Shown: positions 38,060-61,099, counted from the first letter of the stretch. The stretch is DNA of 64,000 nucleotides from Carpediemonas membranifera BICM (GCA_019828565.1 JAHDYR010000008.1:62001-126000), one strand, 5' to 3'. Notes: generated by a model from the letters alone, not told the origin. Translations and numbers: made by a program.

Positions 38060-38586
38060 ATGGTAGAAAATTCGGAACATCCAGATCCGACGGCAACGAG
38101 GCTCAATAACCTAGAAGCCTCAATCGCTACCATCTCGCAACAGCTTGCAAAGCTTAATCCGCCTCCTCCGCCGCCCGAGACCGAGCCGCCGAAGGAATCT
38201 CAAATTGATTTCTTCCCTGAACAAGATGAAGCGGATATTGACCAAACACTGGCAGAGATGGATGCATACGGCGAGCTTCCGACAAAGAGACCACTTAAGG
38301 CGGAAGCAAAGTGGCTTCGCCGCGTGATGGTGATCGTCAACGCCCTCGACGACGAGCCGCTCAAAGCAAGACTCCTGGTGGAACTCCAAGCACGCCGTAC
38401 CCTTCTGGACCTCAAGGACGACAACTGGTCGGACGCAACCTGCGAACTGTTTCTCGACTTGTTCAACACGTCCCAGACCAAAACCCCCCGTGCCATCTCC
38501 TACTGCGCAGCCAAAGCCAGAGCCAAGGGTAAGAGAAAGGACCAGCCCCAGAACAAAGGGGGTTTCACAAGAAGCACAAGAAGTAG
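38060..38586 (+). CDS. YR1 ORF1 (Gag-like). As assembled it reads on into the YR frame; with one more G at 38558-38562 it stops at TAG 38584-38586
   Basis: Homologous to the YR2 ORF 51240-51794 (ELP.KRPLKAEAKWL, LDLKDDNWSDAT, YCAAKAR). Confidence 0.75.
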
Positions 38587-38615
38587 CCCTTGCCACAGAT
38601 GTTCAGTTCCCGTCA

Positions 38616-40634: not shown

Positions 40635-41392
40635 CCGAGGGTACCACGTCGGGCCCACAGTCGATACACAGGAAAGGCTACTGGATTTGCGAGGCCGCCC
40701 CACTCGTGTCTGACTGGCGCCCCCCGATCGCTGCCAAGCAGATAATCGCCGCCGCCCGGAACGTCGCCTCTGTAGAAGGCCTGACCGGGGGTGCGAAGCC
40801 TGTCACGTCCGCGAGAGTCCGCAGGGTCATAGACAGACGTCGGAAGTCACCCCAAGCCTTCCAGGCCGCCCTCTTTTCTGCTCTCTGCTTTATCACCGTG
40901 AGTAGAGGCGCAGAGATCTTTGGGCTCAGACGAAGAGACGTCGAGTTCGACGCTGATGGCAATGCCCTCCTTCTGTTCGCGAGAACTAAGACTGCCACAG
41001 GCGTCCGCAAGCTGGTACCAAACCAATCGTGGGCCCGCTTTAACCCAGCAAGGGCCCTGAAGGCATGGGTCCCCACGGCAACGCGCCGCGACGACGACCT
41101 CATCTGGCGGGCGATCACCTCAACCGGTGGTATTTCACTATCGAAGCCGCTACCGGCGTCAACCCTCCGCCACTGGATCCACCAGGCGTACGGCACCGAC
41201 ATTTCGTGGCACTCATTCCGCAAGGGCGCCACCACGGAGTTGGCGGTAGCCCACACGAGTACCGAAGTCCTCCTGTCCATGGGGACGTGGGCCTCCACGA
41301 AAAGCATGCTGAGATATATGGGCAACGGGGTCCGCACACACCCGGGGGTCCAGGGACACCTGGCCTCCATCCTTCTCCAACCACCACTTTAA
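40500..41392 (+). CDS. YR1 tyrosine recombinase domain (end of the long frame overlapping RT; start approximate)
   Basis: Catalytic R (VSRGAE), K (RTKT), HxxR (HSFRKG), W (GTW), Y (MLRY). Confidence 0.9.
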
Positions 41393-41650
41393 ATCTCTGA
41401 CGGGAGCTAGTGGCTGGGAGAGCTAGGTAGGGTGGGGCTGACACGCGTTACAACGGCAGATGTAAGCCACAACAGACATTCTTTGACGCGGTCTCTCGAG
41501 GAGACGGTCGGTTTGGGCTCGCAAGCGTGCCTGCAAGCCATTCCACTATGCTCGTTGCCGGTGGGTGTGCCATTGTTGGCTTGCGCAGGTAGATCTGTTT
41601 ACATAAACTGCACTGGCTCTCACTTCCCTCCTCAAGGCGAAGCTAGCCAG

Positions 41651-44473
41651 CTAACGGCGGCCATTGCCCCGGAACTTCCGCTTGTAACGTGCGAAGAGGG
41701 GCGTGAGACCTGGGTTGAGGCGTAGGTAGTCATCCAGGGCGGCGAGGCGGTCGTAATATGCGTTATACGGAATGTACGAGTCCTCGGAGTCTTCTAGGCC
41801 TTCCCAGTGGACGAGGAGCTCGAGGCGTCGGTTGCGCTCGCGGTGGCCGACGATGGCGGAGACTTGTTGTTCGTCTTGTTCGTATGCGGCGATGCGCTCG
41901 AGTGTCTTGAGGTCTGCTGTGCCTGGGTCGAAGCGAATGAGGCGGTCCTGGTGGACGAGCAGCTCGGACTTGGTGACGAGGTCACGGAGGACGAATGTGT
42001 TGGGGCTCTTCCCTTCCCTGAGGAGTTGTAGCGGGCCGCGGACTGGAGGCAGAATCTTGGATGGGGCCTTGTGAGGATATCTCAGGAGCACTAGGCGTTC
42101 GAGTTTCCAGTCGAAGTTGTCCGCCGGTTGGGTTTGTGCGGCCTTGTGACGCTCGTATGCGGCGATCTTCGCGCGGGCTGCGTCGTGCATGGCCTGTATG
42201 TCGGTGTGGAATGCGTTAATGGCCTGGATGGTAGGTGTGTCTTGCGTCGCCTTGGCGGCGCTGATGATGCGTGACTCCGGGAGGGCCGTGAGCGCGGACG
42301 TGTGTCCGAAAAGCAGCTCGAACGGCGTGAAGCCGGTAGTCGAGTGTGTCGAAGTGTTGATAATGTGTTGCACGATTGGGATAAGTGCGGGCCAGTCGGT
42401 CGTTTCTGAGTCTAGTAGCAGGGCGCGCAGTCTGCGCATGATGGTCCCATTGACTCTCTCGACAACGCCGTTACTCTGTGGGTGGTACGCTGTGGAGAAC
42501 CTGTGGTTCAGGCTGATCTTCTTGTTGAGAGCGGCGATGGTTGAGTTCTTGAACTGACTTCCCTGGTCTGTCTGGATCAGGCTGGGTGCGCCGAAGAGCG
42601 ACCACAACTGGAGCATCGCGTCGGCGGCTTCTTCTGCCGAGGTTGACGCAACCGGCTTGAGCACAGTGAACTTGCTGAAGACGTCGGTGAACACGATCAC
42701 GTGAGCGAGGCCATTCGTCTTTGGAAGCGGGCCGAGCGTGTCTATCTGCACCGCCTCGAATGGGCGGGTCTTCTGGGTCGTATGCCACTGGGCCTTGGCG
42801 ATGGGGTGGGATTTGAGCTTCTGGCAGACTGGGCAAGTCGCGACGTGCTCCGCGACGTCTGAGTTCATGGAAGACCAGGTCTTGCCGGCTTCCTTGAGAT
42901 GGGCGATCGTTTGTTTGATCGAAGCATGGCCGTTGGCTCCAGCGTGGGCCTGCTGAATGTCGAAGCGGTGGGTGCTGCTGGCGATTTCGCTGATCGCCGC
43001 GCCGCTGGGGCGGGAGAGGGCGTCCGCGACGACGTTAGTTGTCCCTGCGATATGCATGATGTCGAAGGGGTACTCGGATAGGATGAGTCTCCATCGCGTG
43101 AGCTTGCGCGTCCCTTCCTCAGCCTTGCGAATCATCCACACGATGTTCTTGTGATCTGTGAGTACGGTGAATGGCTTCAGCTTGAGAATCTGGCTAAACT
43201 CTGGCCGGGTGATGCAGTATATGACTGCGTAGAGCTCTTGCTCGACCGTCGCCCAGCGGCGTTGGGTCTCTGTGAACGTCTTTGAGAAGTACGCGAGGGG
43301 TTTCTTCGTGTCGCCCTCGTGTTGCCACAGCACTCCGCCGGCTGCGATTGTGGACGCGTCTGTCTCAAGTGTCCACTTGCAGGTCAGGTTGGGTAGTGCC
43401 AATGCCTTGTTGTCGGTGCACAGCTCCTTCAGAGCCGCGAATGCCTTGTCGTGTTCCTCAGTCCAAGGGAGCTTGTCTAGCTTCTTGGGTGACCCCTTGA
43501 GGAGGGCGTTGAGGGGGGGCTGTGGCTGAGCTGAGTTGCGGGAGGTAGTTTGCGAGGTGGTTAAACTTGCCCATCGTGCGTCTGAGCTCTGTGACGGTGG
43601 TGGGGGCGGGCAGCTCCTTCAGCGCGGCGACGCGGCCTGGGCTCACCGAGCGGCCGGAGCTGTTGATGATGAATCCGCAGACCTCCACTTCGGCGGCGCC
43701 GATGGTACATTTGTCCGCGCGGAGGCGCAGGCGGTTGTCCTTGGCTCTCTGGAGGGTGAGTCTCAGGGTGTTGAGGAATCCTTCTTCGGTCCGTGCGTAG
43801 AGGAATATGTCATCCACGTAGACCCGGTGGCCGGGGATGCCATCTAGCACGGCCTCCATCGCTCGTTGAAACTTGGAGGGGCGTTCTTAAGTCCAAACGG
43901 GACCCTGAGGAACTCGAATTGGTGCCCGGGGACTACGAACGAGGTAAGGTGGATGCTGGCCGGCTCCATCAGCTGCTGCCAGTATCCGGACCGGAGATCG
44001 AGTGATGCAAAGTAAGAGCATCCGCCGGCTTCGTGGGGCAGGTCCCTCAGATCGGGGAGGGGAAAGGCGTCGTCCTTCGTGGCGTCGTTAAGATCGTTGA
44101 ATGCGACGCAGAAGCGGGGTTCGCCGTTCTTCTTGGTTGCCATCGTGTGGCGGCTGGCGTGCTCGGACTGGCTGTCTCGTATGATGCCGAGCTTCTTCAT
44201 CTTCTCGATCTCGGAGAGGGCGGCTGAGCCAGCCTCTCCGACAAGCTGTCGAGGACGGCACTTGAGGTGAAAATCGCGTGTGAGTTCGATCTTGTGAGGC
44301 TGTAGTTTGCTGCCTTCGGGCGGGAGAGCCGGGTCGAACACCTCATCGAACTCCTCGACGATGCTTCGGACCTTGTTGGCGAACTCGGTGCCGTGGTCGT
44401 CCGGGATCGCGACGGCGAGCGAATGCTTCGAGTCCGAGGTTGACGCCGCTTCGAAGACGTCGGCGTCGATCAT
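41651..44473 (-). CDS. G1 Pol (RT-RNase H-integrase-chromodomain), with frameshifts near 43870 and 43510
   Basis: LDLRSGYWQ, PFGLKNAP, VYVDD, ETDAS, GHAS..CPVCQ, IDTLGP, TDQGSQF, YHPQSNGVVER, VSAIVGHR..LVHWEG. Confidence 0.88.
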
Positions 44474-44498
44474 GTTGTGCTCTTCTAGATCGTCCTTA

Positions 44499-45536
44499 TC
44501 ATCCGGCTTCTCGGACGGGAGTATCAGTAGGGTCGAGGGTCGAGAGGGCGTCTATGCAGTCGCGGGCGGGACGCCAGTTGCCGTCCGAATCCCGCTCGAT
44601 CAGCGCCTCGTATAGCGGGATCGCGTCGTCGTCGTATCCCTTGAGGGCGACGGACCGGACCGCAGCGCGGAGGGCGCTGTCGGGGATCTTATGGTAGCCA
44701 TCGGCCTCGACGACGGGGTTGTACCCGTCGCACGCCTTCTGCAGGCGCAGAGTGTTAAGGCGGTGGGCCGCGTTCTGGCCGTACAGTTGGGTGCCCTTGC
44801 TCGTGATGGCCTTGAGGCGTGCACCGCGGTCGAGTGTTGGCATCAGGGTAAGGTACAGGTGAGGCAGGATGGTCCTGGCCTCGGCGCGAAGCTGGTCACG
44901 CACGGACACGGGGGCGGAGGGGGCGGCCGTTGCCGCTGACGGGAGAGAGTTGACGATTCTCGCGACATCCGCGGCCGATCGGGCCGGTTTGTCGTCCAGG
45001 GGGTTCGTTAGCGTCGCGAAGGTGAGGGTCGCATCCGGGTCCGCCTCGTGGCGGTCGTGGCTGGCCGTGCAGAGGCTGGCGAGCTTATCGTTCAGCTCGG
45101 CCTCGGCGCGGTCGTAAACAGCCTGCATCCGGCGCATCGCCGGGTCGAGAAGCGGGCTGTCCTTATAGGTGTTGGCGGCTGCAGCACAGAGCAAGAAGAG
45201 ATCGTCCTGCAGAGCGTCGATGATCGCGCGGTATCTTGCGCGGCACGACGTGGCGTGTCTGTCAGGTTCTTGCTTGGCGTGTTGTGCCTGCGAGACCACG
45301 TCAGGGATAAGGGAGTCCCAGAACGACTCGAAGGTCGGTAACGTGGAGGTGGGCCGCCATGTGGCTTGTAGAAGCTCGAGGGTCTTTGCCGTGAATGCGT
45401 GGGGGAAAGAACGGGGTCTTTTGACGTTACCGACTTCCCGTAACCAGATCTCGTACCCCGTTGTGAGGGAAGAGACGTCTATCACGGATAGACCACTGTG
45501 TGATTCTGTAGAAGCAGAATATCGATATTGTGCCAT
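44499..45536 (-). CDS. G1 Gag (start codon inside the 5' LTR)
   Basis: ATG at 45536 (MAQYRYS..); local similarity to G2 Gag (PTFESF/PTFEDF, GY..I/L, DSDG/NSDG). Confidence 0.7.
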   Translation of the reverse strand: MAQYRYSASTESHSGLSVIDVSSLTTGYEIWLREVGNVKRPRSFPHAFTAKTLELLQATWRPTSTLPTFESFWDSLIPDVVSQAQHAKQEPDRHATSCRARYRAIIDALQDDLFLLCAAAANTYKDSPLLDPAMRRMQAVYDRAEAELNDKLASLCTASHDRHEADPDATLTFATLTNPLDDKPARSAADVARIVNSLPSAATAAPSAPVSVRDQLRAEARTILPHLYLTLMPTLDRGARLKAITSKGTQLYGQNAAHRLNTLRLQKACDGYNPVVEADGYHKIPDSALRAAVRSVALKGYDDDAIPLYEALIERDSDGNWRPARDCIDALSTLDPTDTPVREAG

Positions 45537-46006
45537 TGTTGGCTTGCGCAGGTAGATCTGTTTACATAAACTGCACTGGCTCTCATGGGATATCCCCGTT
45601 GGGTAGAGCAAGTATGTCTAGAGGCTAGGACAGCTAGCTGGCGTTACATCGCGCTGACAGGTTACCTCGGGTAACGGGCCGTGAGCGGAGGGCAATGAGA
45701 TCGCCTCGCTCCGGCATGGTGATGCGCCGACCAGGCGAGCCGCGCAGTTTATGCGGGCAGAATGGTAGAAAATTCGGAACATCCAGATCCGACGGCACGA
45801 TACTGGTCAAGACCGGTATATCCGCCCAGTAGGTAAGCTGGCCGGAGTCCCCTGATCGTTTACACTAGCTCTCTTCTTTAATAAACGATCGCCCCCGTTG
45901 GGTAGAGCAAGTATGTCTAGAGGCTAGGACAGCTAGCAAATCCTTTACCCCCCTTTGGGAGTATGAGTTAGGTGGCTAGCCTAGTCTAGCCTCCAGCTAT
46001 AAAATT

Positions 46007-46078
46007 CGTCCACGCTGGGATTCGAACCCAGATCACTGGCTCCGGAAACCAGTACACTGTCCCTTATGCTACGCGGAC
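46007..46078 (-). tRNA. tRNA-Arg (anticodon CCG)
   Basis: GTCCGCG acceptor stem, anticodon arm CTGGT-TTCCGGA-GCCAG, T-arm CTGGG-TTCGAAT-CCCAG, CGTGGAC+G; TTTT Pol III terminator at 46001-46004. Confidence 0.92.
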
Positions 46079-46352
46079 ACGGCAACCCGGAGATCGTTCA
46101 GCAGAGAAGGATACGGTACCTGCTTGCTGCTTCAACACCAGACGCACTTCACAAGCCGATGGCTGCGTTTCTAGTCTGTAGACGCGCTATTGGTGAATTG
46201 TGCCTTAAAATGCGAATCTCAAAATGCCCTGAAACACCCCAACATAACCACTCCTGAGTTATAAACATCTGGCGCTACATCGTCAGTAAGGTTACCTCGG
46301 GTAACGGGCCCGGAGCGGAGGGCGATGCGATAGCCTCACTCCGGGCAAAAGG

Positions 46353-49300
46353 TGTGGTATGGATAGAACAGCTAGCGAAAGAGGTTTAATCAATTGATTG
46401 GGACACTACCCCTCTCCTCGAGGTGACGGCGCACGACGGACGTGCGGGCGGCGTCAGAGTTGGGACCCTCCCACGTGGCCTTAGCCTCAGGGAAGCCGAG
46501 CCACTTAATGAGGAGGTCGCCAGTCTCGTCGTCGACCTCTAGGACTTTCTCGACGTAATACTCCTCGTCGTCGGTAGCCGCGATGCGCAACAGTTCGGCG
46601 TCGCTGAGGGGGCCTTGGCAGATGCGGATTAACTGGCTCAGGTGGACCCGGCGGCTCTTGCCGCCAGTGAGCGGCGTGATCTCCGCTGCGTAACCGTCGG
46701 CGGCTGTGATGCGGAATGGGCCGCGGTGGCCGTGTAGCTTCGTGGGGCTCTCGTTCTTACGAAGGACCAGAGTGCCCGGCTCGATCGGGGGCGTCGGCTC
46801 TGCGGTCCTTGTCATTGCCTGCTGGCGGTTGAGGGCCTGGTCGGCGAGGATCTGGAGGTGCTCGGTGAGCGCGTCGATGTAGGAGGCTATGTCGTCCAGG
46901 GGAGTATGAACTCTACCCTCCTCCTTGGGTGCGATCGTGAAGTCGCGAGCGGAGGCATGCTTGCCCATCAAGAGAGCAATGGGTTCGACGCCGGTGACGG
47001 AGTGGACCGTAGTGTTCAGGATGTACTGGACGTATGGGACCACGGAGGCCCAGGCGTCGTAACGGTCAAACATCAGACAGAGCACACGTAAGTGTCGCTT
47101 GACTTCCTGGTTGCGTCTCTCGGCCAGGCCGTTTGACTGAGGGTGGAAAGGGATTGTCCGGTGGTACGTGACCTGCAAGCGATCAAGGAAAGCTTCTATC
47201 ATCCGATTGCGGTACTCGGGGCCGTTGTCCGAAAGGAACTCGCGAGGCACACCGTAGCGTCCGATGATGGACCAAAGTGCCAGCCCGACCGTCGTCGCGT
47301 TGTTGGAAGCTGTGGGGATGAGCTCCGTGAAGCGGGTAAACATGTCGGTTGCCACCACGATGTATCTGAAACCCTCGGAGTCGACAGGGAAAGGACCCAT
47401 GGTGTCTACAGCGATGGTCTGGAAGGGTCGGTCGCGCAGAGAAGACTGCGTTGTGGTCTTAATGAAAGCGGAGAGGCGTGCCTTAGCGCAGTACACGCAG
47501 GTTGACACGACTGCGTGCACGTCGGAGTGGAGGCCTGGCCAATCGTGCCCAAGCTGGCGGACGTTCCTGATGGTGGCCTGCTCGCCCTCGTGGTATCGGT
47601 GAGCTTCTTGCACGATCTTGCGCTTGGCGTCTTCGTCGAGCTCGGCCTCTGAGACGTTGTTGACCTGCGTGACTGTGGCCTGCGGGTTGTATCGACTGAG
47701 TGCGTCGGCCAGTGTGTTCTGCGCGCCTGCGATGTGTCTGATGACGAACTCGAACTCTTGGATCATAAGCAGCCAGCGGAGGTGCTTACGGTTTTCCTGG
47801 CCAGCCTTGGAGTGCAGGTAGACCAAGTTGCGGTGGTCCGTCCAGATCGTCAGGTCCTGGTGGACTCTAAAGATGGGCGAGAGGTCAGGCCGAGTGAGGC
47901 AGTAGATGATCGCGAACAGCTCCTGGTCGTACGTGCACCAACGCGACTGTGTGTCGTTGAAGACCTTTGAGAAGAATGACACGACGCGCCATGTGTTGTC
48001 CGAGTCAAGCTGCAGTAAGACACCGCCGATGCCTTCGAGAGAGGCGTCGGTCTCGAGGCGCCAGGGCCTGCTCTGGTCCGGATGGGCGAGGACCTCTTCG
48101 TCTGTCACGGCCTGCTTGAGCTGATCAAACAGAGCCTGAAGCGTGTCGTCCCAGTCGTTGAAGGTGTAGGGTGGGACCTTGCTGACCAAGGCCTGGAGCG
48201 GCTTGAGGCGTGTCTGGCAGTCGGGGATATAGTCACTGAGGTATGTGAACATACCGATGATCATGCGTAGGTCCTTGACCGAGTGAGGTGCGGCGAGGTC
48301 CTGCATGGATCTGACACGAGTAGGGCTCATGCGGCGGCCCTTGCCATCGACGATATCGCCGAGGATCTCGATAGACGTCGCCCCGAAGACACACTTGTCG
48401 CCGCGGAGGCGGACGTTGCGTTCCTCTGCGATACAGAGTAGGCGGTCGACGTGGTCTAGAAGCTCCTGAGGTGTCTTGGCTCGACCAAAGATGTCATCGA
48501 TGTAGTTCTTCGTACCGTCGGCGCGCACAGGGGCAAGGATTGCCTGGATGGCCCGCTGGAACTGTGACGGTAGGTTACGAAGACCAAAGGGTGCAAAGTT
48601 GTACTCTTTGAACCGGCCTGGCAGCGTTATAGCGGTGAGGTACTTGTGGTCTTCGCGTACTGGCATTTGATGAAAACCTGACCGGAGGTCACAAGCGAAG
48701 AAGTACTTGGCACCGATGAAGTCGTTGGTGAAGGTGCGGATATCTGCGAGGGGGAACCTGTCTGGTGTAGTTACCGAGTTAAGCTCGCGGTAGTCGGCGC
48801 AAAGTCGTAACTCGCTTGACTTCTTCACTACGATGACGGCTGCGGATGCCACGTGGCTGTAGGAATCGCGTACGATGCCCTGTCTGTCCATGTCGTCGAT
48901 AATCTCGTGCACTCTTTCGGCGGTGGATGCCGTGAGCGGTCGAGGGGCATGGTTGGGTAGGGGTGCGCCTGGCACGATGTCAATCGTTGCGGCGGCGATC
49001 TGGGCGCCGTCAGGGTGCAGCTCGCCGAATACCGGTGCGTGCCGGCGGATGACATCAGCCATCTCGGCTTTGAGCGGGAAGTCGCTTGCGATGCGTGTGC
49101 CAAGTGGGCCCGCGTCGTCGCTGACGATGTTGTTGACTGCGTGGAAGTCATCGGTCTGGTCGTCGGGGAGGCCTTCGTCCTCGCCGTCGTGAACTTGCGG
49201 GCGGAGGCGAAGCATGATGCCCTCGTCGGACATGAGGCCTAAGAACCACAATATATCCGAGCCGATGAGGACCTTATCGGCCCTGCCGCTGATGACGTGC

Positions 49301-50876
49301 AGGGGCCAATCGATGATCGTTCGGCGGTCGCCCAAGCGGTCCGCGACCAGCGTTGTCTCGAAGGTGCCGTGTTGCTGGAGACCTTGGTCGTCAGGGCCCG
49401 TCAGCTGGACCATGTCGGGGCCCCTCCTGCCAAACTGGGCGAGTGCGTTGGCGAGGTCCAGCGAGATGGTGGACACTACGGAGCCAGGGTCGACCGTCGC
49501 TGAGATAAGCGTGTCACCTATCGTCACTGGAATCCGGAGAAGCCGGCCCGGCGAGTAAGCGTGCTCGGCATGCTCTACGTTCTGAACGCTGCCTTGTTGG
49601 GGCTTGTTGGGGGGTGTCGGTGTGAATGGTGTGGCCTGCTTGGGGTTCTGCCTGAACTGCCAAGGACCCTTCGACGTCGATGGTTGCTGGGGCTGCTGTG
49701 GTTGTCCAGCGGCCTGTCGTTGGGGACCAACTGCCTGCGGCTGGCGTGACTGGTTCTGCTGGGCGGCTGAGGCTTGGTGTGGTGTGCGTTGAGAGGCCTG
49801 GCCCTGGCGGGGATCTTGAGGTTGGCGGCCCGCCGGTGTGGCTCTGTTAGCCTGACTCTGGCGCTTCAGCAGCCGGCACTCTTCAGTAGAGTGGCCGCCG
49901 GGACCGTGGACGCGGCAGGTCTTGCGGCCGTTGCCCGGTGTAGCGGGGACCTTGGCGCCTGCCATGGGACCGGAGGTCCTCTGGCAGAAGGACCAAGGCG
50001 TGACGATCGTCCCATCGGAGTTAGTTGGCAAAGCCAGGATGCGGTGCTGGACGTCATCGATGGTGGTGGCGCCGTCGGCGAAATCCTCGAAGGCGAGGGC
50101 GGCTTCGGTGACGTCAAAACCGCGGGTCAGCACGCGGAAAAGCGTGGATATCAGCCTCTTCTCGGTGAGGGGCGTGTAACCGTTTTCTTCTGTCGGGAAC
50201 TTGGGGTTCAGCTGGCGACAGTGCTTGCCGAAAGCTAGGAACATCTTCTGCATAGAGGTGATGTCTCCACCTGTGAGCGTGGTCCTTTCCAGGATCGCCG
50301 CCGCGCGAGCGGCTGGGTTGGCCCGCTGGGCGGGTGTCAGCTCGAAGTACGCGGTGTAGGTGAGCAAGAGGTCCGCCCGCTCGCGGAGCTCCTCCCTCGA
50401 GAGGCGCTCTGAGGCGTTGGTCGAGGTGTCTGGGGCCGTCGGTGGCGGACTGACCGCCTTGAGGGCTGCGGTGATGAAGGCCTGCTTCAGCTCGTCTGAA
50501 GCGATCGAGGCCGCTTGGGTGTCTATATCCTTGAGCTTGGCCAGGAGAGCGCTGAGCTCCTCGGCCGATTTGTCGTCGTCGTTCTTCTCGGGTTCATTCT
50601 GCTCGGAAGGCTTATGAATGGGAGGACGGATCTCTGTCTCAAAGAAGCATTGGAAATCCTCGAATGTTGGGAATCTCGTTGTCGGGATGAACGCCGCGCG
50701 GATTTCGGCTAGTTTCTCGCTCCCGAGGAAAAAGAGGATGCTAGACGGCTGCTTTTTGCTTGCAACATGAAGACGATACTCGTCTAAACGGCTGTTGCTG
50801 ACTAAAACCATGACAGTGATCACTGTGGTATGGATAGAACAGCTAGCGAAAGAGGTTTAATCAATTGATTGGGACA
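46353..50876 (-). mobile_element. G2: intact chromodomain Ty3/Gypsy element with 53-bp LTRs and 5-bp TSD (AAAGG)
   Basis: Identical LTRs at 46353-46405 and 50824-50876; AAAGG at 46348-46352 and 50877-50881; the empty site ccgggcaaaaggtgtttcg is in the second A copy (about 51186-51204); PPT at 46406-46419. Confidence 0.96.
46390..50811 (-). CDS. G2 single Gag-Pol polyprotein (Gag, Zn knuckle, protease, RT, RNase H, integrase, chromodomain)
   Basis: CRVHGPGGHSTEEC, VDPGS, DYRELN, DLRSGFHQ, YIDD, ETDAS, TDHRNL, HRYH..CVYC, SDNGPEY, HPQSNGLAER, YYVEKVL..LIKWLGF. Stop codon lies inside the 3' LTR. Confidence 0.95.
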   Translation of the reverse strand: MVLVSNSRLDEYRLHVASKKQPSSILFFLGSEKLAEIRAAFIPTTRFPTFEDFQCFFETEIRPPIHKPSEQNEPEKNDDDKSAEELSALLAKLKDIDTQAASIASDELKQAFITAALKAVSPPPTAPDTSTNASERLSREELRERADLLLTYTAYFELTPAQRANPAARAAAILERTTLTGGDITSMQKMFLAFGKHCRQLNPKFPTEENGYTPLTEKRLISTLFRVLTRGFDVTEAALAFEDFADGATTIDDVQHRILALPTNSDGTIVTPWSFCQRTSGPMAGAKVPATPGNGRKTCRVHGPGGHSTEECRLLKRQSQANRATPAGRQPQDPRQGQASQRTPHQASAAQQNQSRQPQAVGPQRQAAGQPQQPQQPSTSKGPWQFRQNPKQATPFTPTPPNKPQQGSVQNVEHAEHAYSPGRLLRIPVTIGDTLISATVDPGSVVSTISLDLANALAQFGRRGPDMVQLTGPDDQGLQQHGTFETTLVADRLGDRRTIIDWPLHVISGRADKVLIGSDILWFLGLMSDEGIMLRLRPQVHDGEDEGLPDDQTDDFHAVNNIVSDDAGPLGTRIASDFPLKAEMADVIRRHAPVFGELHPDGAQIAAATIDIVPGAPLPNHAPRPLTASTAERVHEIIDDMDRQGIVRDSYSHVASAAVIVVKKSSELRLCADYRELNSVTTPDRFPLADIRTFTNDFIGAKYFFACDLRSGFHQMPVREDHKYLTAITLPGRFKEYNFAPFGLRNLPSQFQRAIQAILAPVRADGTKNYIDDIFGRAKTPQELLDHVDRLLCIAEERNVRLRGDKCVFGATSIEILGDIVDGKGRRMSPTRVRSMQDLAAPHSVKDLRMIIGMFTYLSDYIPDCQTRLKPLQALVSKVPPYTFNDWDDTLQALFDQLKQAVTDEEVLAHPDQSRPWRLETDASLEGIGGVLLQLDSDNTWRVVSFFSKVFNDTQSRWCTYDQELFAIIYCLTRPDLSPIFRVHQDLTIWTDHRNLVYLHSKAGQENRKHLRWLLMIQEFEFVIRHIAGAQNTLADALSRYNPQATVTQVNNVSEAELDEDAKRKIVQEAHRYHEGEQATIRNVRQLGHDWPGLHSDVHAVVSTCVYCAKARLSAFIKTTTQSSLRDRPFQTIAVDTMGPFPVDSEGFRYIVVATDMFTRFTELIPTASNNATTVGLALWSIIGRYGVPREFLSDNGPEYRNRMIEAFLDRLQVTYHRTIPFHPQSNGLAERRNQEVKRHLRVLCLMFDRYDAWASVVPYVQYILNTTVHSVTGVEPIALLMGKHASARDFTIAPKEEGRVHTPLDDIASYIDALTEHLQILADQALNRQQAMTRTAEPTPPIEPGTLVLRKNESPTKLHGHRGPFRITAADGYAAEITPLTGGKSRRVHLSQLIRICQGPLSDAELLRIAATDDEEYYVEKVLEVDDETGDLLIKWLGFPEAKATWEGPNSDAARTSVVRRHLEERGSVPIN

Positions 50877-51239
50877 AAAGGTGTTTCGCCGGTCAGGCGA
50901 GTCACGCAGTTTATGCGGACAGAATGGCGCAAGGTTCGGATCCGCCGGATCCGACGGCACGGTACCAGTTACGACTGGTATACTCCTTCTCCCTCGGTAA
51001 GCGGAGAGGACTTCACGTTTAACTTACACTAGCTTCCTCGTTAACATTGTGTAAATTAAGCGCCCCCCCCCCGTTGGTTAATGAAAAGAATGTCATGAGG
51101 CTAGGATAGCTAGCTGGCGCTACATCGTCAGTAAGGTTACCTCGGGTAACGGGCCCGGAGCGGAGGGCGATGCGATAGCCTCACTCCGGGCAAAAGGTGT
51201 TTCGCCGGTCAGGCGAGTCACGCAGTTTATGCGGACAGA

Positions 51240-51794
51240 ATGGCGCAAGGTTCGGATCCGCCGGATCCGACGGCAACACGCTTAGATAAGCTAGAAGCTT
51301 CAATCAATTCCATGTCCGAAGCCCTAAACAGGCTTGCTCCTCCGCCTCCGCCAGAGAAAGAACCTGACGACGAAATGCTCGAAAGTTCCACCGTTGCTAG
51401 GTTCAATACCTCCGAATCGTTGGAGGAGGACACGATGGAGGACATAGATGCAACTCTGGCAGAGATGGACACCTTCTCGGAGTTACCAAGCAAGAGACCT
51501 CTCAAGGCAGAAGCGAAGTGGCTTCAACGCGTTGTCGTGATCACTAGTGCTCTCCCAGATTCCGCGACGAAACAACGTCTTCTTCTCGAACTACAGGCTC
51601 GTAGAATGGTCCTAGACCTCAAAGATGATAACTGGTCCGATGCCACGACCGAGCTGTTTCAGGACCTCTTCAACAGCACAGAAAGCAAGAGCAGCCGCAC
51701 CATCGCTTACTGCGCAGCGAAGGCCCGCTCTAAGGGCAGGCGTAAGGACACCAACGGTAACATGGGGGGGTTTCACAAGAAGAAGAGAACATAA
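51240..51794 (+). CDS. YR2 ORF1 (Gag-like)
   Basis: 184 aa; homologous to YR1 ORF1. Confidence 0.85.
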   Translation: MAQGSDPPDPTATRLDKLEASINSMSEALNRLAPPPPPEKEPDDEMLESSTVARFNTSESLEEDTMEDIDATLAEMDTFSELPSKRPLKAEAKWLQRVVVITSALPDSATKQRLLLELQARRMVLDLKDDNWSDATTELFQDLFNSTESKSSRTIAYCAAKARSKGRRKDTNGNMGGFHKKKRT

Positions 51795-51820
51795 CAACCT
51801 CTGTTCATCAATTCCCGTCG

Positions 51821-52763
51821 ATGAACGCGAGGTGGTGGTTATGGGAAAGGCTCGGCGCCTCGGACGAGGTGGTCGGCTGGCTCCGTCACGGCGTACCTAT
51901 CAAGCTAACAGGCACTCCCCCGCCACCCACGCCACAACGGCGCCTGGACCCACGGCTCACCCCAAAGCTCGACGAGATGGTCCGACTCGGCGTGATCTCA
52001 CCCTGTACCAGCGGGCAACTCCGGCACAGTGCCCCGCTCTTCGCGGTTGCAAAGGGCGAGCACGATGTCCGCCCGGTACACGACCTACGCGACCTCAACG
52101 CAATCACTGCGGAGACGCGGGTCTTCCGGCTCTTCGGCCTAAAACGAGCAGTGCGCAACCTCAAGCGCAACGACTTCATGCTCAAGATCGACTTAGCCTC
52201 CGGCTACCACCAGATGGGTGTGGCTCCGACCGACTCCACGCTACTGGGGATCGTCCTCCCCGAACGGGCAGGCGTACAGATACAACACACTAGGGTTCGG
52301 CTGGACCGCTGCCCCGTTCGTGTTCCAGTCTACGTCCATCCAGCTAGCAAAGATACTCGCGAACCGCTTCAACGTGACAATAGCGGTGTACCTCGACGAC
52401 TTTCTCATCTCACATCGGTCACGTCGCCACCTAGCAGACGCCGCTCCCCAAATAGTCGCGCTCATGAGGTCGCTGGGAGCTATCCCAGGGCTCAACAAGT
52501 GCATCCTAACTCCCACACAACGCCTGGAGTACCTAGGAGTCACCATCAACACAGCCGCCGAGACACTGCAGATTTCCAAGGACAGAGCCGATCGCTATGC
52601 AACATCAATCGAGCAGGCCCTCAGGGCCGGCAGGATCGATGCAACCGAGTGGCAACGCCTACTAGGCCGCCTCTCGTTCTTCGCAAGTACGACACAGTTC
52701 GCCAGGCTCCAGCTCAGATCACTCCAGGCCCTACATCCCGCCCCGACGCTTCACATCTCGCAG
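51821..52763 (+). CDS. YR2 RT, 5' part (frameshift near 52260; interrupted by insertion)
   Basis: RPVHDLRDLN, KIDLASGYHQ, LGFGWTAAP, VYLDDFL. Confidence 0.88.
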
Positions 52764-53234
52764 TTCACCAATGATTTCAGCAAAGTGGAAACACTTCGAT
52801 CATGGATGGACAAGGACCAACAGGCCTGGCCTATATGGATAGGGCAGTGCCCCATGGAGCTCAGAAGGAGCGGCCTTGGCCTCCTGTCTGAACATTCAAG
52901 GGTTGCTATCAGGGCATACCGCTGGGCGCGAGTGGGAGCTCCACGCCCATACCAAGGAATCAAAGTGTCTTCATGGAACGTATGTTTACAAGGAAAAGGA
53001 AAACAACCGTCGAGGGCCAGTGCTAGCACCGGCGGCTACATGGTTTTGTCAAGACCACAAGGAAGGAAGGGCAGCACAAAAGGGAAACAGGGGCCGTCGA
53101 TAGAGGCTAAAAAGGAGACTACGAACAAAGCAACAACAACTACACAGAAAGGCCCCGCTACTCAGAAAAGGGCGACGCATTTTTAGGACCGCGCCTTTTT
53201 GAAAGAATGGCCTATATAGTACGGAGCATGGACA

Positions 53235-56200
53235 ATGGGAGAAACTGGAAGGCCTGGACGGAGACCTCACCCGGATATGTACATGTGGCCCGACTTTCGG
53301 ACCCAAAAATTCCGACCCAGTTTATGGACTAGGAAAAGGGGAGAAATTTTGCACTCAACAATGCAGGTAGAAATACCGACAAGGATCAGGGATTCCACGC
53401 AGAAGCAGTGGGAGGACATCAGGGAACTACTGGACAGCTTCCTCGCTGAAAGGAACGATTCAAGGACTCTACTTCTTCGTAGAACAGGCAAGTTTACAGG
53501 AAAGTCGCTCAATGCGAACTCCAAAGGACGCAAGGAAGTAATCATGAACGCCAGACGCATCCTCTTCGCAACCGGCGTCACTGACAACAAGGACATCATC
53601 CTCAGGAACCCATGCGGCATCCACGGCCTCCGCGACCTTTTCTACATGCTCACAGAGGCGCTCAACCCCAGAGACGAGGAAGCAAAGGACATGGCACAGG
53701 CACTGGAGCCCAAGACGCTGAAAGCGGGCTTCACTGGCATGGCAAGATGGCCATCTGAGAAGGACATCGAGACGGCGATCCTCAAGCCGAAGGAAGATGG
53801 GCCCATCGAATGGGATGTAGACAGGGACAGCGTCAAGAAGGCCGAAGGGTCGTTCATACTGGTATCAGGGGCTCATGGAGACGAGGCCGTAGAAGGCGTG
53901 CCTTACGACAAGGTATGGGATCCGGCAAACCAAGGCCCGGTCACCAGAGTGGCCTACGAGCAAGAGGACGGCAAGTACACGGTCATCCTAGAGCTAAGCG
54001 ACACGTCAGCATGGTCCATCAGCCGCTTCATGGAGGAGGCTAGGGACATCCTCAGGCTTCAGGCACCGGAGGCCCCGGCCATATGGCAGGCAGCATGGAA
54101 CAAGTCAGGGATCTACCTGAAGGGCAGAACCAATATCCTGGGCGAAGGGGAGGAGACCCCCCTTAGCAACGAGCCGCCGTTCCGGAAGGTGAGGCTGGAA
54201 GTGCTCAAGGCCACCTCGGTCCGCAGCAATAGGGACGAACATGCCGATCTGGACAGGTCGTCCGCTAGCACGGTCATCGACGGAGACGAGGAGCAACATG
54301 TCAAGGACAAGGAGGAACGACGCCAGCAGGCCACCATGCCCGGCAGAAGAAGCCTCGACGACAGCCTCCTGGAAGTGAACAAGGACATGGTCGGGGCCAA
54401 CCAAGGCAAGATCGACCAGGACGAGGAGGTCGACTCAAACAAGGTCAGCAGCCAGCCGCCGAGGATGCCTAGAAAGGACAAGGAGAAACGGCTGGTGATC
54501 GGAGCCATCGACTTCGAGTGCGCAGACCCTGGCGTCAAGAAGGCAGGGATCCCTGCCATCCCGGTTGAGGGCGGGATCGTACTCTTTGACCTCAGCACTG
54601 GGGACATTCTTGGACACGGGCATGGCCTGTATTACCAGGACATACCGGCAGCAAGCATGGACCAAGCGAGGTACACGGCATGGGCAGTGACGGGGCTGCC
54701 GCCGGCCACCTTCGTGGAGGTCGGGACGGGGCGGCCGCCGATCGAGTATGAGAAGCACATACATACTTTCAGGGACTGGGCCAACCGCCTGGCGGCTCAG
54801 CTGGCAAGGATCGAAAGGTCGGAGGGCTGGAAGATAATCATGTATGCAAAGGGGGTGGAGATGGAAAGCTTCCTCCTCACGAACCCCACAAATGGACTGG
54901 AGCAAGGAACCAGGGAATTCTTCCAAGCTAGGCTGGTGGACGAGAAGAAGCTACCAGAGATCCTGGAGAACAACGGCAAGGGAGGAGGCTGGCCAAAACC
55001 TCAGGGACAACCTCGACAAGGCCAACTACCTGGAAGCAGTAACAACATGGTCAAATGGATGGCAGAACAGGAGCGAGCCCAAGGGAGTCTGTCCGTACCA
55101 CAGACACACCGCGGGTTGCTACCACTGTGGGTTGGCGGATACAGTAGTCTTCACAGCCAGGATCAGGGCCCTATGCAAGGAGAGGATGAGCACCCCAGAC
55201 GTCTACCACTACATGGGTAAGGCACTCGACAAGACCATGGAAGCAGTCGGGAAGGCGGAGCCGGGCATGGATATCATGGGAGGCCCGGAATTCGCGACAA
55301 GGAGGGACACCTTTGAGATCTTCGGCACGTACCCGATCGGGGACGCAAGGGACGTCAGCAGGGAAGTCGGCGACAGGATCCTCGTAGTCCCGGACAACGG
55401 ACACCGCTTCGGCATCGGCTTCGGGTTCGGGGAGGTTCTGTTGGGCATGAAGGGCATCTTACTGGCCCCCCTCACAATCATGGACAACGAAGGAGTGCTG
55501 GAGAGAAGCCCACTATGGACCATCATGGAAAGAGCCACGGCTAACCAGCTCCGCATGGTACGCGTCAGGAAGGGCCTAGGGGCAGCAAGGGAGGAGGACA
55601 TCATAACCATGGCCATGCTATACGAGTGGTGGCCCTCGAAGGAGGCTACGGCTCATCAAGGAGTCTGGGGCTGCGACGACCTAGCAGAGAGCCTCAGGGA
55701 CTATGAGAAGGTCATAGTCAACGTCAAGGCCCCCAGGAACAGGGGTAGGATCACCCTAGGGGCGAGCTTCATCCCGAGAGACTGGGGCATGGTCAGGGTC
55801 AGCGAGGCTGGGACCATCCTAAGCCGCATGCGCAAGGAAGGGGCCAGACTAGTCTCGGCAGCTATCCCGGACGAGCCCAGAGCCAACACAGTCAATGTCC
55901 CAGGCATCACGTATGTCCCCACCATCGACGGAAAGTCCGAACAGCCATACCAAAGTAGGTTCTTCGACAACGGCCTGGAGGAAAAGGCGAGGCGGATTAG
56001 CACCAGGATGGTGGGCAGGCACTTCTGTGATCTTGTCGAGGTTAAAGGTTTCAAAACAAACTGTTTATAGGGTTCGCACGTGTAGTTGGTACCCTAAACT
56101 GCTCACACTTCCCCTCTAAAGGTGCAGCTCCGGGTGAGCCTCGGCATAAATGTCGAGGGCTTCGAGGTCGCGGACCTCGTGGTACGGGAGCCACTCATCG

Positions 56201-59200
56201 GCGCCTGGGTAGCCATCCCAGGCGACGAGGAATTCGAGGGTAGACTTCGTGGGGCCACCACGGTGGCGGGTGATGGCCTCGACTTCGTAGGTGTCGTCGT
56301 CAAGGGAGGCGACGGTGATGTCATCGAAGGCCAGGGAGTCGTCGTACTCCACGAGCCGGGAACCGTGATACTGGAAGGTGGCGCCGGCAGTGGGGTTGTG
56401 TACGGTGTAGATGTCGTGCTCGCGGTCAGTGATCGTGTATGGGCCAACGAGCTTAGTAGACAGCTTGGTGGGGCGCTTCGAAGGGCGCGTGACAAGCACC
56501 TTCGAGCCAATAGGAAGGGGCTCGTCGCCGAAAGCCGGACGTTTCGAGAGGACGTTCTCTTGGTGCTGGCGTGCTGTCTCAATGAGCTTGGGCTGGGCCT
56601 GGAGAACACGGCTAAAGAAGCGGCCGTATTCACTCTTCTCCTCCTCAACGTGGGCGTCGGACGACAGGAAGGGGGTGACGTTCTGTGAAGCGAACATGAG
56701 CTGTGCGGGGGCAATGCCCGTGGTGGCACATATCGTGGTGTTCATGATCCGCTGGACGACTGGGAGGTAAAGGGACCAGTTGTTAACGTCGCGCAGCTCC
56801 TGAGTGATGGTACGTAGGTGTCGTGAGAGCTCGGCGTTAGCTCTTTCGACGAGCCCGTTGGCTCTGGGGTGGTATGGAAGCGAGACAACGTGTTGGGCGC
56901 CGAAGAGCTTAATGAGCTGTTGGAAAGCGGTGGCAAGGTACTGAGAACCGCGATCACTTCGGAAAGAAGACGGAGTACCGTAGCGTCCCGTGACGGAGAT
57001 AAGAGCGCGAAGGGCCTCTGCAGAAGAAGCATCCTTGCATGGGACCAGCTCTACGAAGCGTGTGAAGGTGTCAATGAAGGTGATAACGTAGCGGCATCCG
57101 TTGGAGTCTGCAGGATAAGGCCCGACCGTATCAAACGCCCAGCAGGAGCGTGGGGTGACGCCCATGGTAGGGCGGAGGCCTGTCTGAAGGCGCTTGGGAA
57201 GTCTGGCGTTCTTCTGACATATCGGGCAAGCCTTGATATACTCGGCGACAGCGTTGCTCATTCCACGGAAGTCAAGGTTTCGTTCCTTAAGGAGGCGGAG
57301 TGTAGCCTCTCGGCCGAGGTGTCCCTCGACGGCATTGTGGACAGAGGCTATGATAAGTCGCTGGAGTGTAGGGGCATTCTCGGGGGGTTGGACGATGAAG
57401 CACCTGGATATGCCATCAGTGAGGGTGTTGGAGACGCCAGAGATGTGTTCAACGACAAAGTCGAACTCTTGGAGTCTGAGGTTCCAGCGGACGACCTTGG
57501 GTGTGGTAGAACGGCGCATATAAACTAGGTTACGGTGGTCTGTCTGTATAGCGAACGAGTGGCCGAGGAGATAGGGGAGTACTTCTCGACAACCGCGAAG
57601 AAGATGCCGAAGGCTTCCTTTTCGATGACAGCCCAGTTGCGCTCTGCGGTGGTGAATGCGTGGCTACAGTAGGAGACTACGTGTTCAACGCCATCCTTGA
57701 CGTTGAGGAGCACGCCTCCACAGCCAATGTCGCTAGCATCGGTGCGAACGATAATTGGGGCAGAGTAGTCCAGGAAGGCTAAACACGGCGTGTGGGCGGC
57801 GAGGTTCTTGCTCTCTTCGAAAGCAGTCTGGGCCTCCTTTGTCCATTTCCACCGGACCTTCCCAGAGGTGAGGGCGTATAGTGGCTGTAGGATCGAGCTG
57901 AGGTTGGGGATGAACCTACGGAAATAATTCATCGCTCCACAGAAGGCCCGCGTGGTCTTGATGTCCTTAGGAGGAGCCATGGCCTGAACGGCCTTGACCC
58001 GGGCGGGGGACATGCGGATTCCCTCGGGGGAGATGATATGGCCGAGGTATTCCACCTGCTCAGCGTACAGACAGCACTTGCTGGGATGAAGGACGAAGCG
58101 ATGTTCCTTGAGAACGGCAAGGATCTCAGCTAGGCGTGTAGCTAGTTCGTCCGTGGTTGATGCGTGAATGATGATGTCGTCTATGAAGACCTCGCACGTA
58201 GTTCCGACAAACTTGGAGAGCAATTGGGTCATGATGGCCTGGAAGGTAGCAGGAGCCGTTTTGACGCCAAATGGAACGCGCGTATACTCATAAAGGCCGG
58301 TTGGAGTTGAAAACGCGGTTATCGGAATGGAACTTTCGGACAGTGGGATCTGGTGGTATCCACTAACGAGATCTAACGTCGCAAAGCAACGTTGGCCTGC
58401 GAGATGCGACATCAGCTCTTCTTGGTGTGCAAGTGGGAAACTGACTTGCTTGATGCGATCATTCGCCTGACGGTAGTCCACGACGAGGCGGCGGGCACCG
58501 CCCTTTTTGGGGACAGTAAAGACGGGTGCAGCCCAGGGAGAGCGTGAGGGGCGGACGATTCCTTGAGCAAGGAGCTCGTTCACCTGGTCATCAACCTCCT
58601 GCTGGATTGCAGGGGATAGACGACGCGGCGGTTGAGCAGCCGGTGTGGCGCCCTCAAGCAGCTCTATCTCCATAGGGGGAACGTCTGCTCCGTCTGGGTG
58701 GGGACGGCTGGTGAAGACTTCGGCATACTCATCATAGACGGCTCTGATGGCTGGCGGGAGGGCAGACGCGGTTGAACCTACGTCAGGGAGCTGCTCTCCT
58801 TCATCTAGGCGAGTGACGGGTGCGTGATCCTCATCGATCGTCTCCTCATCGGCCGTTGGGGGCCAAGGAGAGGGAGAGATCTTGGATAGTGGAGTTTGAG
58901 AGGATCAGATCCTCCGACATAGAGGGGAGGATGTAGAATGGCCGAATGGAGCGAACGCCATCAATGAGCATGGCAAGGAACACAGCTCTCTTGATGAAAA
59001 CTGGACCGTTCGCGGTATCCAAACGAACGTTAGCGACGGCTGGAAGAGCGCCACGTTGGATAAATGATTCGGCTATCGTGGGGGAGATGAGGTCAATAGT
59101 TGCACCAGTATCAAGTACTGCACAGACCTCTGTGGCAGTACTCTCGTTGATGGGAACATAGAGAGTGGCTTGGCGACAGATGAGGCCGTCGTGATCAGTG

Positions 59201-60778
59201 GCGGCCAGATTCGCCTTTTCGCGCTTGACTGGCGGACCCTGGATGGGAGTCTTGCGCACGCCAGAGCGGAAGAAATCTCTGTGTCCTTGATAGGGACAGT
59301 TGGGGCGGATGTGGCCCGTATGGCCACAGCCGTGGCAGGGGCAGACGATCGTTGGGGTAGTCTAGCCCCAGCGGCGGCGCCGGGAGTCGGGCGCTTACCA
59401 GCTGGCTGGGCCGGTTCCGGCTGCAGGAGCGACTGGAGGTTAAGGAGTTCCTCCAGTTCATCAATGGCGTGGTCCTGCGCCTCTGCGACGTCATCTGGCT
59501 GCTCCATGCGGATACGCTCCGCAAGAGGATCTGGAAGTGCCTGCAGGTATGCCTTCACCATTAGCTTCTCTGGTGGTGTGACGTCGGCTGTGAACGAGCT
59601 CCGGATAGTTTCGAAGCGTTCGATATGGTTGAGAAGCTGTGCAGGCGTTGATAAGGGGCCCGTTCGGGCGCACCGCAGCGACTTCAGCTTGGCTAGTGCT
59701 TGAACGTTACTGCGGGGGCTATAGAATGTTTGGTAGACTGTGTCCAAGACAGTATCCGCCGGAAGATCGGCCGGATTGTCGTTGAGACGGCGTGTGATGA
59801 GAAGAAGAGGCGTAGGATCCATCAGGGCAGTCGGATGGAGAAGAGGATCGTCAAGGCGTTGAGCTCGGTACGCACGGTAGGACGATCGGAACTTGGTGAA
59901 CGCCTGTTCTTCTAGTGTTAGTAAGAAAGGTCTTGGTATGTAGTCGGACATTAGATGAGTGTACACTGTGATCTTGTCGAGGTTAAAGGTTTCAAAACAA
60001 ACTGTTTATAGGGTTCGCACGTGTAGTTGGTACCCTAAACTGCTCACACTTCGGCCAGGACGCGGATCAAGGACATCACGACCAGCATGGAGACAGGGAA
60101 GAGGACAGAAGGGTAGGACACGGAGCCGGCGGTAGAGCTGGTGTCAGAGCTGACGACAGAACCGGCGACAGAGCTGGTAACATGAACAAGACCTCGGATC
60201 GTAACCACGGAGGAGACGACAGGGAGAGACAGGACAACACGGGAACGCAGATGAGAGGCTCGTTCAGCGGGAACACCTGGGCCGGTAGAGGCTCAGAGGG
60301 AGGCATGGACAACAGCAAGGATCACTCTTCCTCCACGACGCTCAAGCGCAAGGAGGGCAGCACGAGTAGGATCATGGACTCGGACAGCGGAAAGAGAAGC
60401 AGGCACGAAGAGGACATGGACTGGGAGTCTGGAAGCAGACAGGCAACCGGCATGGACTCGGAGAAGCTGCGGCTCCGAAAGCAGTTGGCAGAGGCGCAAC
60501 AAGAGATCTCAGCGCTCAAGGCTGCCCGACTCATGCAAGAGCAAGGCCACGGAAGGTTGGTGCTCTCCGGCGTCGCGACTAAGCCCAGCAAGGAGAAGCC
60601 CACGATCCCCCGGCACAAGCACAAGAAGGCTAAGAAGGCCAAGCAGATCTCACCCATGGACCTGATGACCCAGTTCATCACGGTAATGCAGAGTCTACAA
60701 GGACAGCAAGTGAGTCAGGCCGAGGACAGCTGCAGCGGCAGTGGGGGAGTCCACGGAGGAGGAGTAAGGACATGGTAA
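53235..60778 (+). CDS. Non-LTR element ORF1 (53235-56025 + 60053-60778 after removing G3; frameshift near 54980) containing a Maelstrom-like domain
   Basis: Removing G3 and one TSD copy restores the frame MVGRHF|GQDADQG...MNKTSD. MAEL-like motifs at 54490-55170. Confidence 0.75.
56026..60048 (-). mobile_element. G3: chromodomain Ty3/Gypsy element with 82-bp LTRs and 4-bp TSD (CTTC)
   Basis: Identical TGTGA..TCACA LTRs at 56026-56107 and 59967-60048; CTTC at 56022-56025 and 60049-60052; PPT AGAGGGGAAG at 56108-56117. Confidence 0.95.
56116..59951 (-). CDS. G3 Gag-Pol (at least 3 frameshifts, near 59350, 58850 and 57560)
   Basis: CHGCGHTGHIRPNC knuckle, VLDTGA protease, LDLVSGYHQ, FIDD, TDAS, GHLG..CPICQ, SDRGSQY, HPRANGLVER, YEVEAITRHR..LVAWDGY chromodomain. 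Confidence 0.88.
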
Positions 60779-61099
60779 AGCAGTATTCTTTCAAGGAACA
60801 AGCAACATTTTCTTTTATAATTCACAAGCCCTGGCTCCCACCCAGGGCCCGGCATTAGCTGAAATGCACTGCCGGTAGGCTGTAGCGGCAGCCAAAGGGG
60901 GGTCACGTCATATCGTCCCCCTCCTAAGTACCCTGCCCGAAGAATGGAAGGTCACCAGGTGGTAACAAGGTTGGCCTGACAAGGGTCACCGAGACCGGCA
61001 TCTAGGCCCCTTGTCAGGACAAGGATAGCAGGAGAGGAGCGGGAAGCTGGGGCTCCCAAATTCTGGGAATTCGCAGGATAAGGAAACAGGACAAAGGCA

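Follow-up and report, generated by a model that had tools for sequence, protein, structure and literature searches.

Organization of the Locus

The window analyzed here, a stretch of 64,000 nucleotides of the Carpediemonas membranifera BICM genome, is eukaryotic DNA rich in genes (GC about 58%), among them those for dynein, CDC20 and U2 snRNA, and has short introns. It carries three Ty3/Gypsy elements, G1, G2, and G3 (Table 1), in each of which the two LTRs are identical and bounded by TG..CA, and a purine tract abuts the 3′ LTR. An earlier note on this DNA had described these ends as real termini with LTRs of 53, 57, and 82 bp. Our analysis of the termini bore out both the sizes (for G2, G1, and G3, in this order) and the description, since TG..CA, PPT, and TSD were found at both ends. 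The raw repeat of G3 is 87 nt long, of which 5 nt are due to chance or to an overlap of TSD and PPT. For G2, an uninterrupted copy of the repeat that it hit is present at 51114–51275, and this copy equals the two flanks of G2 plus one TSD at 162 of 162 nucleotides. As the empty-site paralogue equals both flanks, the G2 junctions are fixed independently of the LTR match. Neither a solo LTR nor an additional copy at 60% identity or more was found within the 64-kb window.

Table 1. Positions of the elements and related features, counted from the first nucleotide of the window.
Feature	Position	Strand	Remarks
G2, intact Ty3/Gypsy element	46353..50876	-	4,524 bp; termini, ORF, empty site
G2 5′ LTR	50824..50876	-	53 bp, TG..CA
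G2 3′ LTR	46353..46405	-	53 bp, identical to 5′ copy; stop codon at LTR nt 14-16
G2 polypurine tract (PPT)	46406..46419	-	protein-coding
G2 TSD	left copy 46348..46352; right copy 50877-50881	.	5 bp
G2 single Gag-Pol ORF	46390..50811	-	1,473 aa, no internal stop; 97.7% of element
G2 chromodomain, HP1-like	46456..46563	-	approximate limits
G2 ATTAAA box, 3′ LTR	46385..46390	-	LTR nt 16-21; likely poly(A) signal (function inferred)
G2 ATTAAA box, 5′ LTR	50856-50861	-	
G2 palindrome	50813..50826	.	perfect, 14 nt; overlaps last 3 nt of 5′ LTR
Empty site, uninterrupted copy of repeat hit by G2	51114..51275	+	162/162 identical
G1	41566..45585	-	4,020 bp; 57-bp LTRs (41566-41622, 45529-45585); 4-bp TSD
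G1 palindrome	45518..45529	.	perfect, 12 nt; primer-site position; also Gag-coding
G3	56026..60048	-	4,023 bp; 82-bp LTRs (56026-56107, 59967-60048); 4-bp TSD
G3 palindrome	59958..59967	.	perfect, 10 nt; primer-site position
Tyrosine-recombinase (DIRS/Ngaro-like) retrotransposon	37937-45937		split direct repeats: A 37937-38095, 45639-45797; B 45594-45638, 45893-45937
Second tyrosine-recombinase element	46269-64000		about 68% identical to first; frameshifted
tRNA-Arg gene	46006-46079		between the two tyrosine-recombinase elements, 69 and 190 bp away
LINE-like insert	52749-63518		15-bp TSD, AT-rich tail; contains G3

All three elements lie antisense to the elements that they interrupt. G1 and G2 sit in repeats of tyrosine-recombinase retrotransposons, and G3 in the LINE-like insert, which itself interrupts a tyrosine-recombinase element. 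The first tyrosine-recombinase element has overlapping ORFs for Gag-YR (38060–41392) and RT-RNase H, a weak match to Dam methyltransferase (E 0.025), and a 3′ region interrupted by G1, while the second has an unusual A-B-A repeat order ahead of its ORFs and is broken by G2 and a 10.7-kb insert. An endonuclease match (61100–61831) and long unannotated A-rich ORFs (53235–56070) are found in the LINE-like insert, in which Pfam gave no match to a Maelstrom-type domain. Elsewhere in the window, a 27-bp repeat array (4346–5128) lies inside a calponin-homology-domain gene (3747–5855, minus strand), and the nearest Atlas clusters of the host gene at 30436–31827 are bacterial phosphoglucosamine mutases. 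The latter gene was possibly acquired by lateral transfer.

Coding Capacity

The uninterrupted Gag-Pol of G2, noted earlier at about 1,470 aa, measures 1,473 aa. As had also been described, its ATG begins at the 13th nucleotide after the 5′ LTR, the stop codon is inside the 3′ LTR, where we place its end at nt 16, and the PPT lies within the coding sequence. Among 12 relatives checked, seven likewise have the stop codon within the 3′ LTR. The G2 product contains a zinc-knuckle variant (CX2HX4HX4C), a D-P-G protease motif, an RT with YIDD, RNase H, an integrase with HHCC and DDE motifs, and a chromodomain, and its top PDB match is Ty3 Gag-Pol (E 1.9e-70). Assignment to Ty3/Gypsy rests on the order protease, RT, RNase H, integrase between TG..CA repeats, together with the PPT and a TSD within the expected range of 4–6 bp. 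The protease motif D-P-G, in place of D-T/S-G, is located at residue 440 of G2 (window position 49494) and recurs in the relatives P0003, P0004, and P0006. By its sequence, G2 is an autonomous, coding-complete element with predicted protease activity.

The earlier description of all three elements as coding-complete holds for G2, which has all domains and catalytic motifs in one ORF, but not for the other two: G1 is frameshifted and lacks a protease, and G3 is frameshifted. In G1, the Gag core is followed at once by the region immediately ahead of RT, so that about 330 aa of the relatives, comprising the Gag zinc knuckle and the protease, remain unmatched. No protease-type D-S/T/P-G in a hydrophobic context was found in G1, and two frame changes lie in its RT/RNase H. 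As a derivative without protease, G1 would depend on complementation in trans. In G3 every domain is present, spread over four segments in alternating frames (three frame changes). Assembly frameshifts in the host genes of the window were considered and rejected, as the dynein breaks are short GT..AG introns; on this ground, therefore, the frameshifts of G1 and G3 cannot be dismissed as errors. Identical LTRs of 53–82 bp are compatible with up to 4–5% divergence. Consequently, they do not prove very recent activity, and the decay of G1 and G3 may postdate their insertion. Two further details reported for these elements were confirmed: the gag ATG of G1 lies inside the LTR (the sole upstream in-frame ATG is at LTR nt 50), and the stop codon of G3 runs into the PPT.

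The G2 chromodomain matched HP1 chromodomain structures with an E-value of 1.5e-5 and keeps the three cage aromatics (Y, W, F), of which the first and third are missing from the G1 chromodomain. Pfam Chromo E-values were 6e-4 for G2, 1.3e-5 for G1, and 7e-4 for G3, with the curated cut-off reached by G1 only. The single-sequence fold of the G2 C-terminus (pLDDT 47.6) was too poor to use.

Phylogenetic Position

A profile search yielded 78 loci, the metagenome part being the best 80 of 255 confirmed stretches. Thirty-one of the 78 loci came from one other assembly (contig names PPCM01), which is home to the closest relatives of G2 among these best 80 of 255. In trees of RT-RNase H, the window elements formed a clade with 77 of the 78 loci, proteins of Andalucia godoyi, Dysnectes brevis, and Aduncisulcus paluster, and one MMETSP transcript. 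The clade was supported at 0.998 and 1.0 by FastTree and at 100/99 by IQ-TREE, the latter run on 39 rows with 20 of 59 left out. It excludes the chromodomain-type rows of Oryza, Tanacetum, Chara, and fish (Hemibagrus); the references were database-named proteins rather than curated clade prototypes, and no Skipper or DGLT-A sequences were among them. The named relatives suggest that the host is likely an anaerobic flagellate of the fornicate kind.

The elements had been called chromoviruses. The name is apt in that a chromodomain is present at the integrase C-terminus, but a placement in a named clade (Tf1/sushi, Tcn1, or the plant clades) is not evident from the trees, and RT phylogeny against database-named, not curated, references put them in a protist clade of their own, apart from the plant and fish rows. 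Judged by domain content, the elements are chromoviruses in the broad sense that form a separate protist Ty3/Gypsy clade.

LTR Anatomy

Both G2 LTRs contain an ATTAAA box (Table 1), and an NNTAAA hexamer is present in 22 of 23 short LTRs. In 17 of the 23 its start lies 34–50 nt from the LTR end (in 2,000 shuffles, the mean count was 1.9 and the highest 7), a range that was picked after inspection of the data and that fits 3 of 13 elements from other metagenomes. Among 16 LTRs, the part preceding the box varies from 15 to 89 nt (sd 18), while the distance from the box to the LTR end is 38–53 nt (sd 3.9). As the latter is nearly constant and the former varies, the variable part would correspond to U3. 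In G2, U3 would then be 15 nt long and double as att site and last codons. Host genes have TAAA within 60 nt of the stop codon in 12 of 14 cases; on the 5′ side it was present in 2 of 14 flanks, and in coding sequence in 5 of 285 windows. The box of G2 comes immediately after the pol stop, which is also the arrangement of host genes. The NNTAAA box is likely to be a poly(A) signal of the host type, and the 53-bp LTRs of G2 likely hold little beyond the integrase ends and this signal. A second perfect palindrome, of 12 nt, is found in the G2 LTR (nt 7–18; 46388–46399 and 50859–50870), where it overlaps the stop codon and the box; no such LTR-internal palindrome was seen in G1 or G3.

It had been proposed that the LTR functions are compressed into about 50 nt or borrowed from coding or flanking DNA. 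Compression describes U3 well, as it shrinks to 15 nt in G2 and is mostly coding, but not the nearly constant part from the box to the end. A promoter borrowed from flanking DNA is disfavored, because all three elements are antisense to those they sit in. More generally, the promoter could lie outside the LTR, either inside gag or in flanking DNA with read-through, so that the contribution of the LTR would be limited to att ends, R, and poly(A) signal. In G2 the box is preceded by a mere 15 nt, largely coding, which would suit such an arrangement, as would the fact that no conserved promoter motif was seen besides the box. However, the antisense position of all three copies speaks against it, in transcripts begun upstream of the 5′ LTR the poly(A) signal of that LTR would be exposed, and tiny promoters are plausible in this host, in which the space common to two divergent genes can be as small as 134 bp (between predicted ORF starts). 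We therefore regard an outside promoter as rather unlikely; its gag-internal variant is compatible with the priming model presented below.

Palindromes at the Primer Site

No tRNA-type primer site, as judged by a TGG start, was found in G1, G2, or G3, each of which carries at the corresponding position a perfect palindrome that overlaps the last base of the LTR (Table 1). To these were added 53 of 76 non-duplicate loci (metagenome part from the best 80 of 255), giving 56 palindromic ends, of which 44 were located through the palindrome itself. Not one of the 56 starts with TGG, and in all of them the core runs from the terminal A of the LTR to a T, with 37 distinct sequences. Where the LTR end was fixed independently, that is, by two copies with different downstream sequence, a palindrome of at least 10 nt (10–16 nt) was present at the last A of the LTR in 12 of 12 cases, compared with a background of 115 of 8,325 ACA sites and 1.2% of shuffles. 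One locus (L060) was excluded from the independent set, as its second repeat leads into another palindrome and not into flank. Another 23 loci had no match in the strict palindrome screen. Six of them were inspected by eye: five had a palindrome, or nearly one, behind a CA in another context, and one, L001, which lies outside the clade in the FastTree trees, had a TGG site.

The palindromes appear to change quickly while staying symmetric. One family with RTs only 0.00–0.02 changes per site apart comprises 13 copies with 7 different palindromes between conserved flanks. Within it, 78 of 78 cells pair, 5 of 6 pairs show double changes, and 0 of 500 shuffles scored as high, although covariation among related copies counts sequences and not events. 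The central pairs of the palindrome, which would be free in a hairpin loop, stay paired as well. Calculated RNA energies had a median of −12.8 kcal/mol for the two-molecule duplex and 0.0 for the hairpin; duplexes of AT-rich palindromes are weak, down to −6.2 kcal/mol. In most members the leader is 12–21 nt long.

Other arrangements were searched for and rejected. A conserved U5-leader stem around the palindrome, as seen in G2 and G3, had a mean z of −0.46, with 2 of 42 below −2. A Tf1-type match of the primer site to the LTR (8 nt) was found in 1 of 56 ends and in none of the three window elements, and a downstream partner of the GalEa type in 2 of 56, in both at a distance above 50 nt. Three loci showed peculiar end structures: near-identical LTR ends on one contig, at L060:73 and L060:5734, each lead into a palindrome of their own, which would reflect either tandem elements or a join in the assembly graph; in L002, an additional, third copy of the LTR is found 538 bp past the 3′ LTR (4628–5243); and the LTR of L008 (207–294) ends in a 13-nt tandem duplication, with the 3′ copy diverging after 25 nt.

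A Model for Priming

On the basis of these sequence comparisons, we propose that reverse transcription is primed without tRNA, within an RNA dimer, through the palindrome at the LTR edge. To this model as a whole, including the U3-R-U5 map, we assign slightly better than even odds (about 0.55). Transcription would begin within the 5′ LTR, at the TAAA box or immediately downstream of it, and the box would thus be outside the RNA 5′ end and active at the 3′ end only, so that premature polyadenylation is avoided. R would probably be shorter than about 25 nt, and U3 would be free to shrink to the 15 mostly coding nucleotides of G2. In the particle, two genomic RNAs would anneal via the palindrome. 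One strand would be cut at or near the 3′ end of the palindrome, probably by the RNase H of the element; this step is borrowed from Tf1, in which RNase H makes the cleavage for self-priming. The resulting 3′-OH would prime strong-stop DNA of the minus strand, some 20–40 nt long, on the partner RNA. During plus-strand synthesis the RNA primer would be copied, so that a change in one half of the palindrome is written into the other half. Such rewriting of the opposite half would explain how fast turnover goes together with perfect symmetry. Finally, the chromodomain would likely steer insertion into silent, repeat-rich chromatin, which fits the finding that all three window copies sit inside other retroelements.

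Alternatively, the palindrome might be a dimerization or packaging signal only, comparable to the retroviral DIS or the Ty1 PAL, with a tRNA fragment, a small RNA, or a protein as the primer. In HIV-1, Ty1, and Ty3, palindromes mediate or may mediate dimerization (passages of PMC3592414 and PMC5371799), and the 12–21-nt leader leaves scant room for such a signal elsewhere. These known palindromes, however, come in addition to a PBS, whereas those studied here are located exactly at the primer position, start at the terminal A of the LTR in 56 of 56 ends, and are never accompanied by a TGG site. Moreover, 37 different sequences are not plausibly matched by one conserved host RNA. We consider a role in dimerization alone to be unlikely.

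Snap-back self-priming, in which a single RNA, cleaved behind the palindrome, forms a small priming hairpin with itself, would predict the identical position and the same symmetrizing effect, and a longer stem around the site can be folded in G2 and G3. On the other hand, the median hairpin energy of 0.0 kcal/mol, the loop positions, which are paired as perfectly as the stem, and the poor conservation of the flanking stem all speak against it, and we consider snap-back priming quite unlikely.

LTR Length among the Relatives

LTR length was measured from the PPT to the terminal CA in 16 non-duplicate PPCM01 elements and 15 elements from other metagenomes, all among the best 80 of 255 stretches. 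The PPCM01 LTRs are 64–128 bp long and 14 of 16 are below 100 bp, while those from other metagenomes are 101–442 bp long with 0 of 15 below 100 bp. Seven of the 16 PPCM01 lengths were stitched across contig-end overlaps, and the LTR of L014 was corrected manually (73 instead of 71). When the window elements were counted in, the contrast gave a Mann–Whitney p of 2e-6, for rows that are not independent. It is very improbable that the micro-LTRs are deletion relics, a reading that the earlier note had named as a refutation, or that faulty assembly produced them from elements whose LTRs are of normal size: G1 and G3 are indeed damaged, but TG..CA, PPT, and TSD are exact at both ends, the G2 empty site is matched throughout, and 14 of 16 relatives from an independent assembly fall into the same size class. 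Very short LTRs are a trait of the family or lineage. The sub-branch of G3 and its relative L037 is not that of G1 and G2, and a topology with the short-LTR elements constrained to one clade was rejected (p-AU 0.019, for a group named after earlier trees). As short LTRs thus fall into two sub-branches, the simplest reading is that the host lineage favors them and is itself the driver.

These elements put an empirical lower bound on the LTR near 50 bp. The dispensable part is U3, whereas the stretch of roughly 40 nt between the poly(A)-like box and the terminal CA is retained. The statement that LTR searches use a 100-bp minimum proved correct for two surveys, which apply it according to their methods sections (PMC5445492, PMC6317226); at this setting, the majority of the elements in this host lineage would escape a survey. 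We tentatively suggest, at somewhat less than even odds, that a widespread protist Ty3/Gypsy clade primes reciprocally in an RNA dimer, with the palindrome as both primer and primer site, kept symmetric while drifting and acting as a self-recognition barcode between near-identical families, and that in this host lineage it has reached the smallest autonomous LTR design, 53 bp with a 15-nt U3. If dimer priming is true, it would extend the list of ways in which LTR elements initiate reverse transcription, and the primer site would escape tRNA-fragment silencing. G2, as an intact 4.5-kb single-ORF element, is suited to a direct in vitro test of this tRNA-free mode.

Comparison with Known Systems

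The size precedent for G2 is Mag of Bombyx mori, a compact autonomous Ty3/Gypsy element of about 4.6 kb with 77-bp LTRs, which is not known to have a chromodomain. The LTR of G2 is 24 bp shorter. Elements of the Mag lineage are described as using tRNA primers, and members from Culex have LTRs of 119–304 bp (text portions of PMC3286476). Our literature search, with most subscription papers, Repbase, GyDB, and supplements outside its scope, returned neither a palindromic primer site in Gypsy elements nor an autonomous LTR of about 50 bp. Supplementary LTR-length tables, e.g., that of PMC6317226, could hold shorter ones.

Skipper and DGLT-A are, like the window elements, protist Ty3/Gypsy elements of compact genomes, and DGLT-A has a single ORF, as does G2. 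Skipper chromodomains belong to group I or II; those of G2 and G3 are of group I and that of G1 of group II. At the primer position, a polypyrimidine stretch is present in Skipper and a TGG site in DGLT-A, in contrast to the palindromes of the window clade, with TGG in 0 of 56 ends. Among the table entries concerned, Skipper LTRs are 208–390 bp long (this comparison draws on parts of PMC5006619). The window clade also resembles Tf1/Tf2, sushi, and Tcn1 in being of the chromodomain type of Ty3/Gypsy and, as we propose, in tRNA-independent priming by its own RNA. It differs in that the Tf1 site pairs with the 5′ end of the transcript in the LTR while its own site is self-complementary (relevant passages of PMC5006619, PMC6317226, and PMC5371799), and it forms a separate RT-RNase H clade.

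In the fungal Ty1/Copia elements GalEa, the Conserved Hairpin Site takes the place of a tRNA PBS and is palindromic once the final A of the LTR is included, as are all 56 cores here; the mechanism is left unexplained in the pertinent sections of PMC5445492. According to the same sections, GalEa elements have LTRs of 138–311 bp and a 9-mer that hardly varies (two sequences account for 85% of families), with a second, complementary 9-mer 12–41 bp downstream. The window clade, in contrast, is Gypsy, has palindromes of 10–16 nt with 37 sequences, and shows a downstream partner in only 2 of 56 ends. With these differences, the GalEa hairpin site is the closest printed precedent for the palindrome of the window clade.
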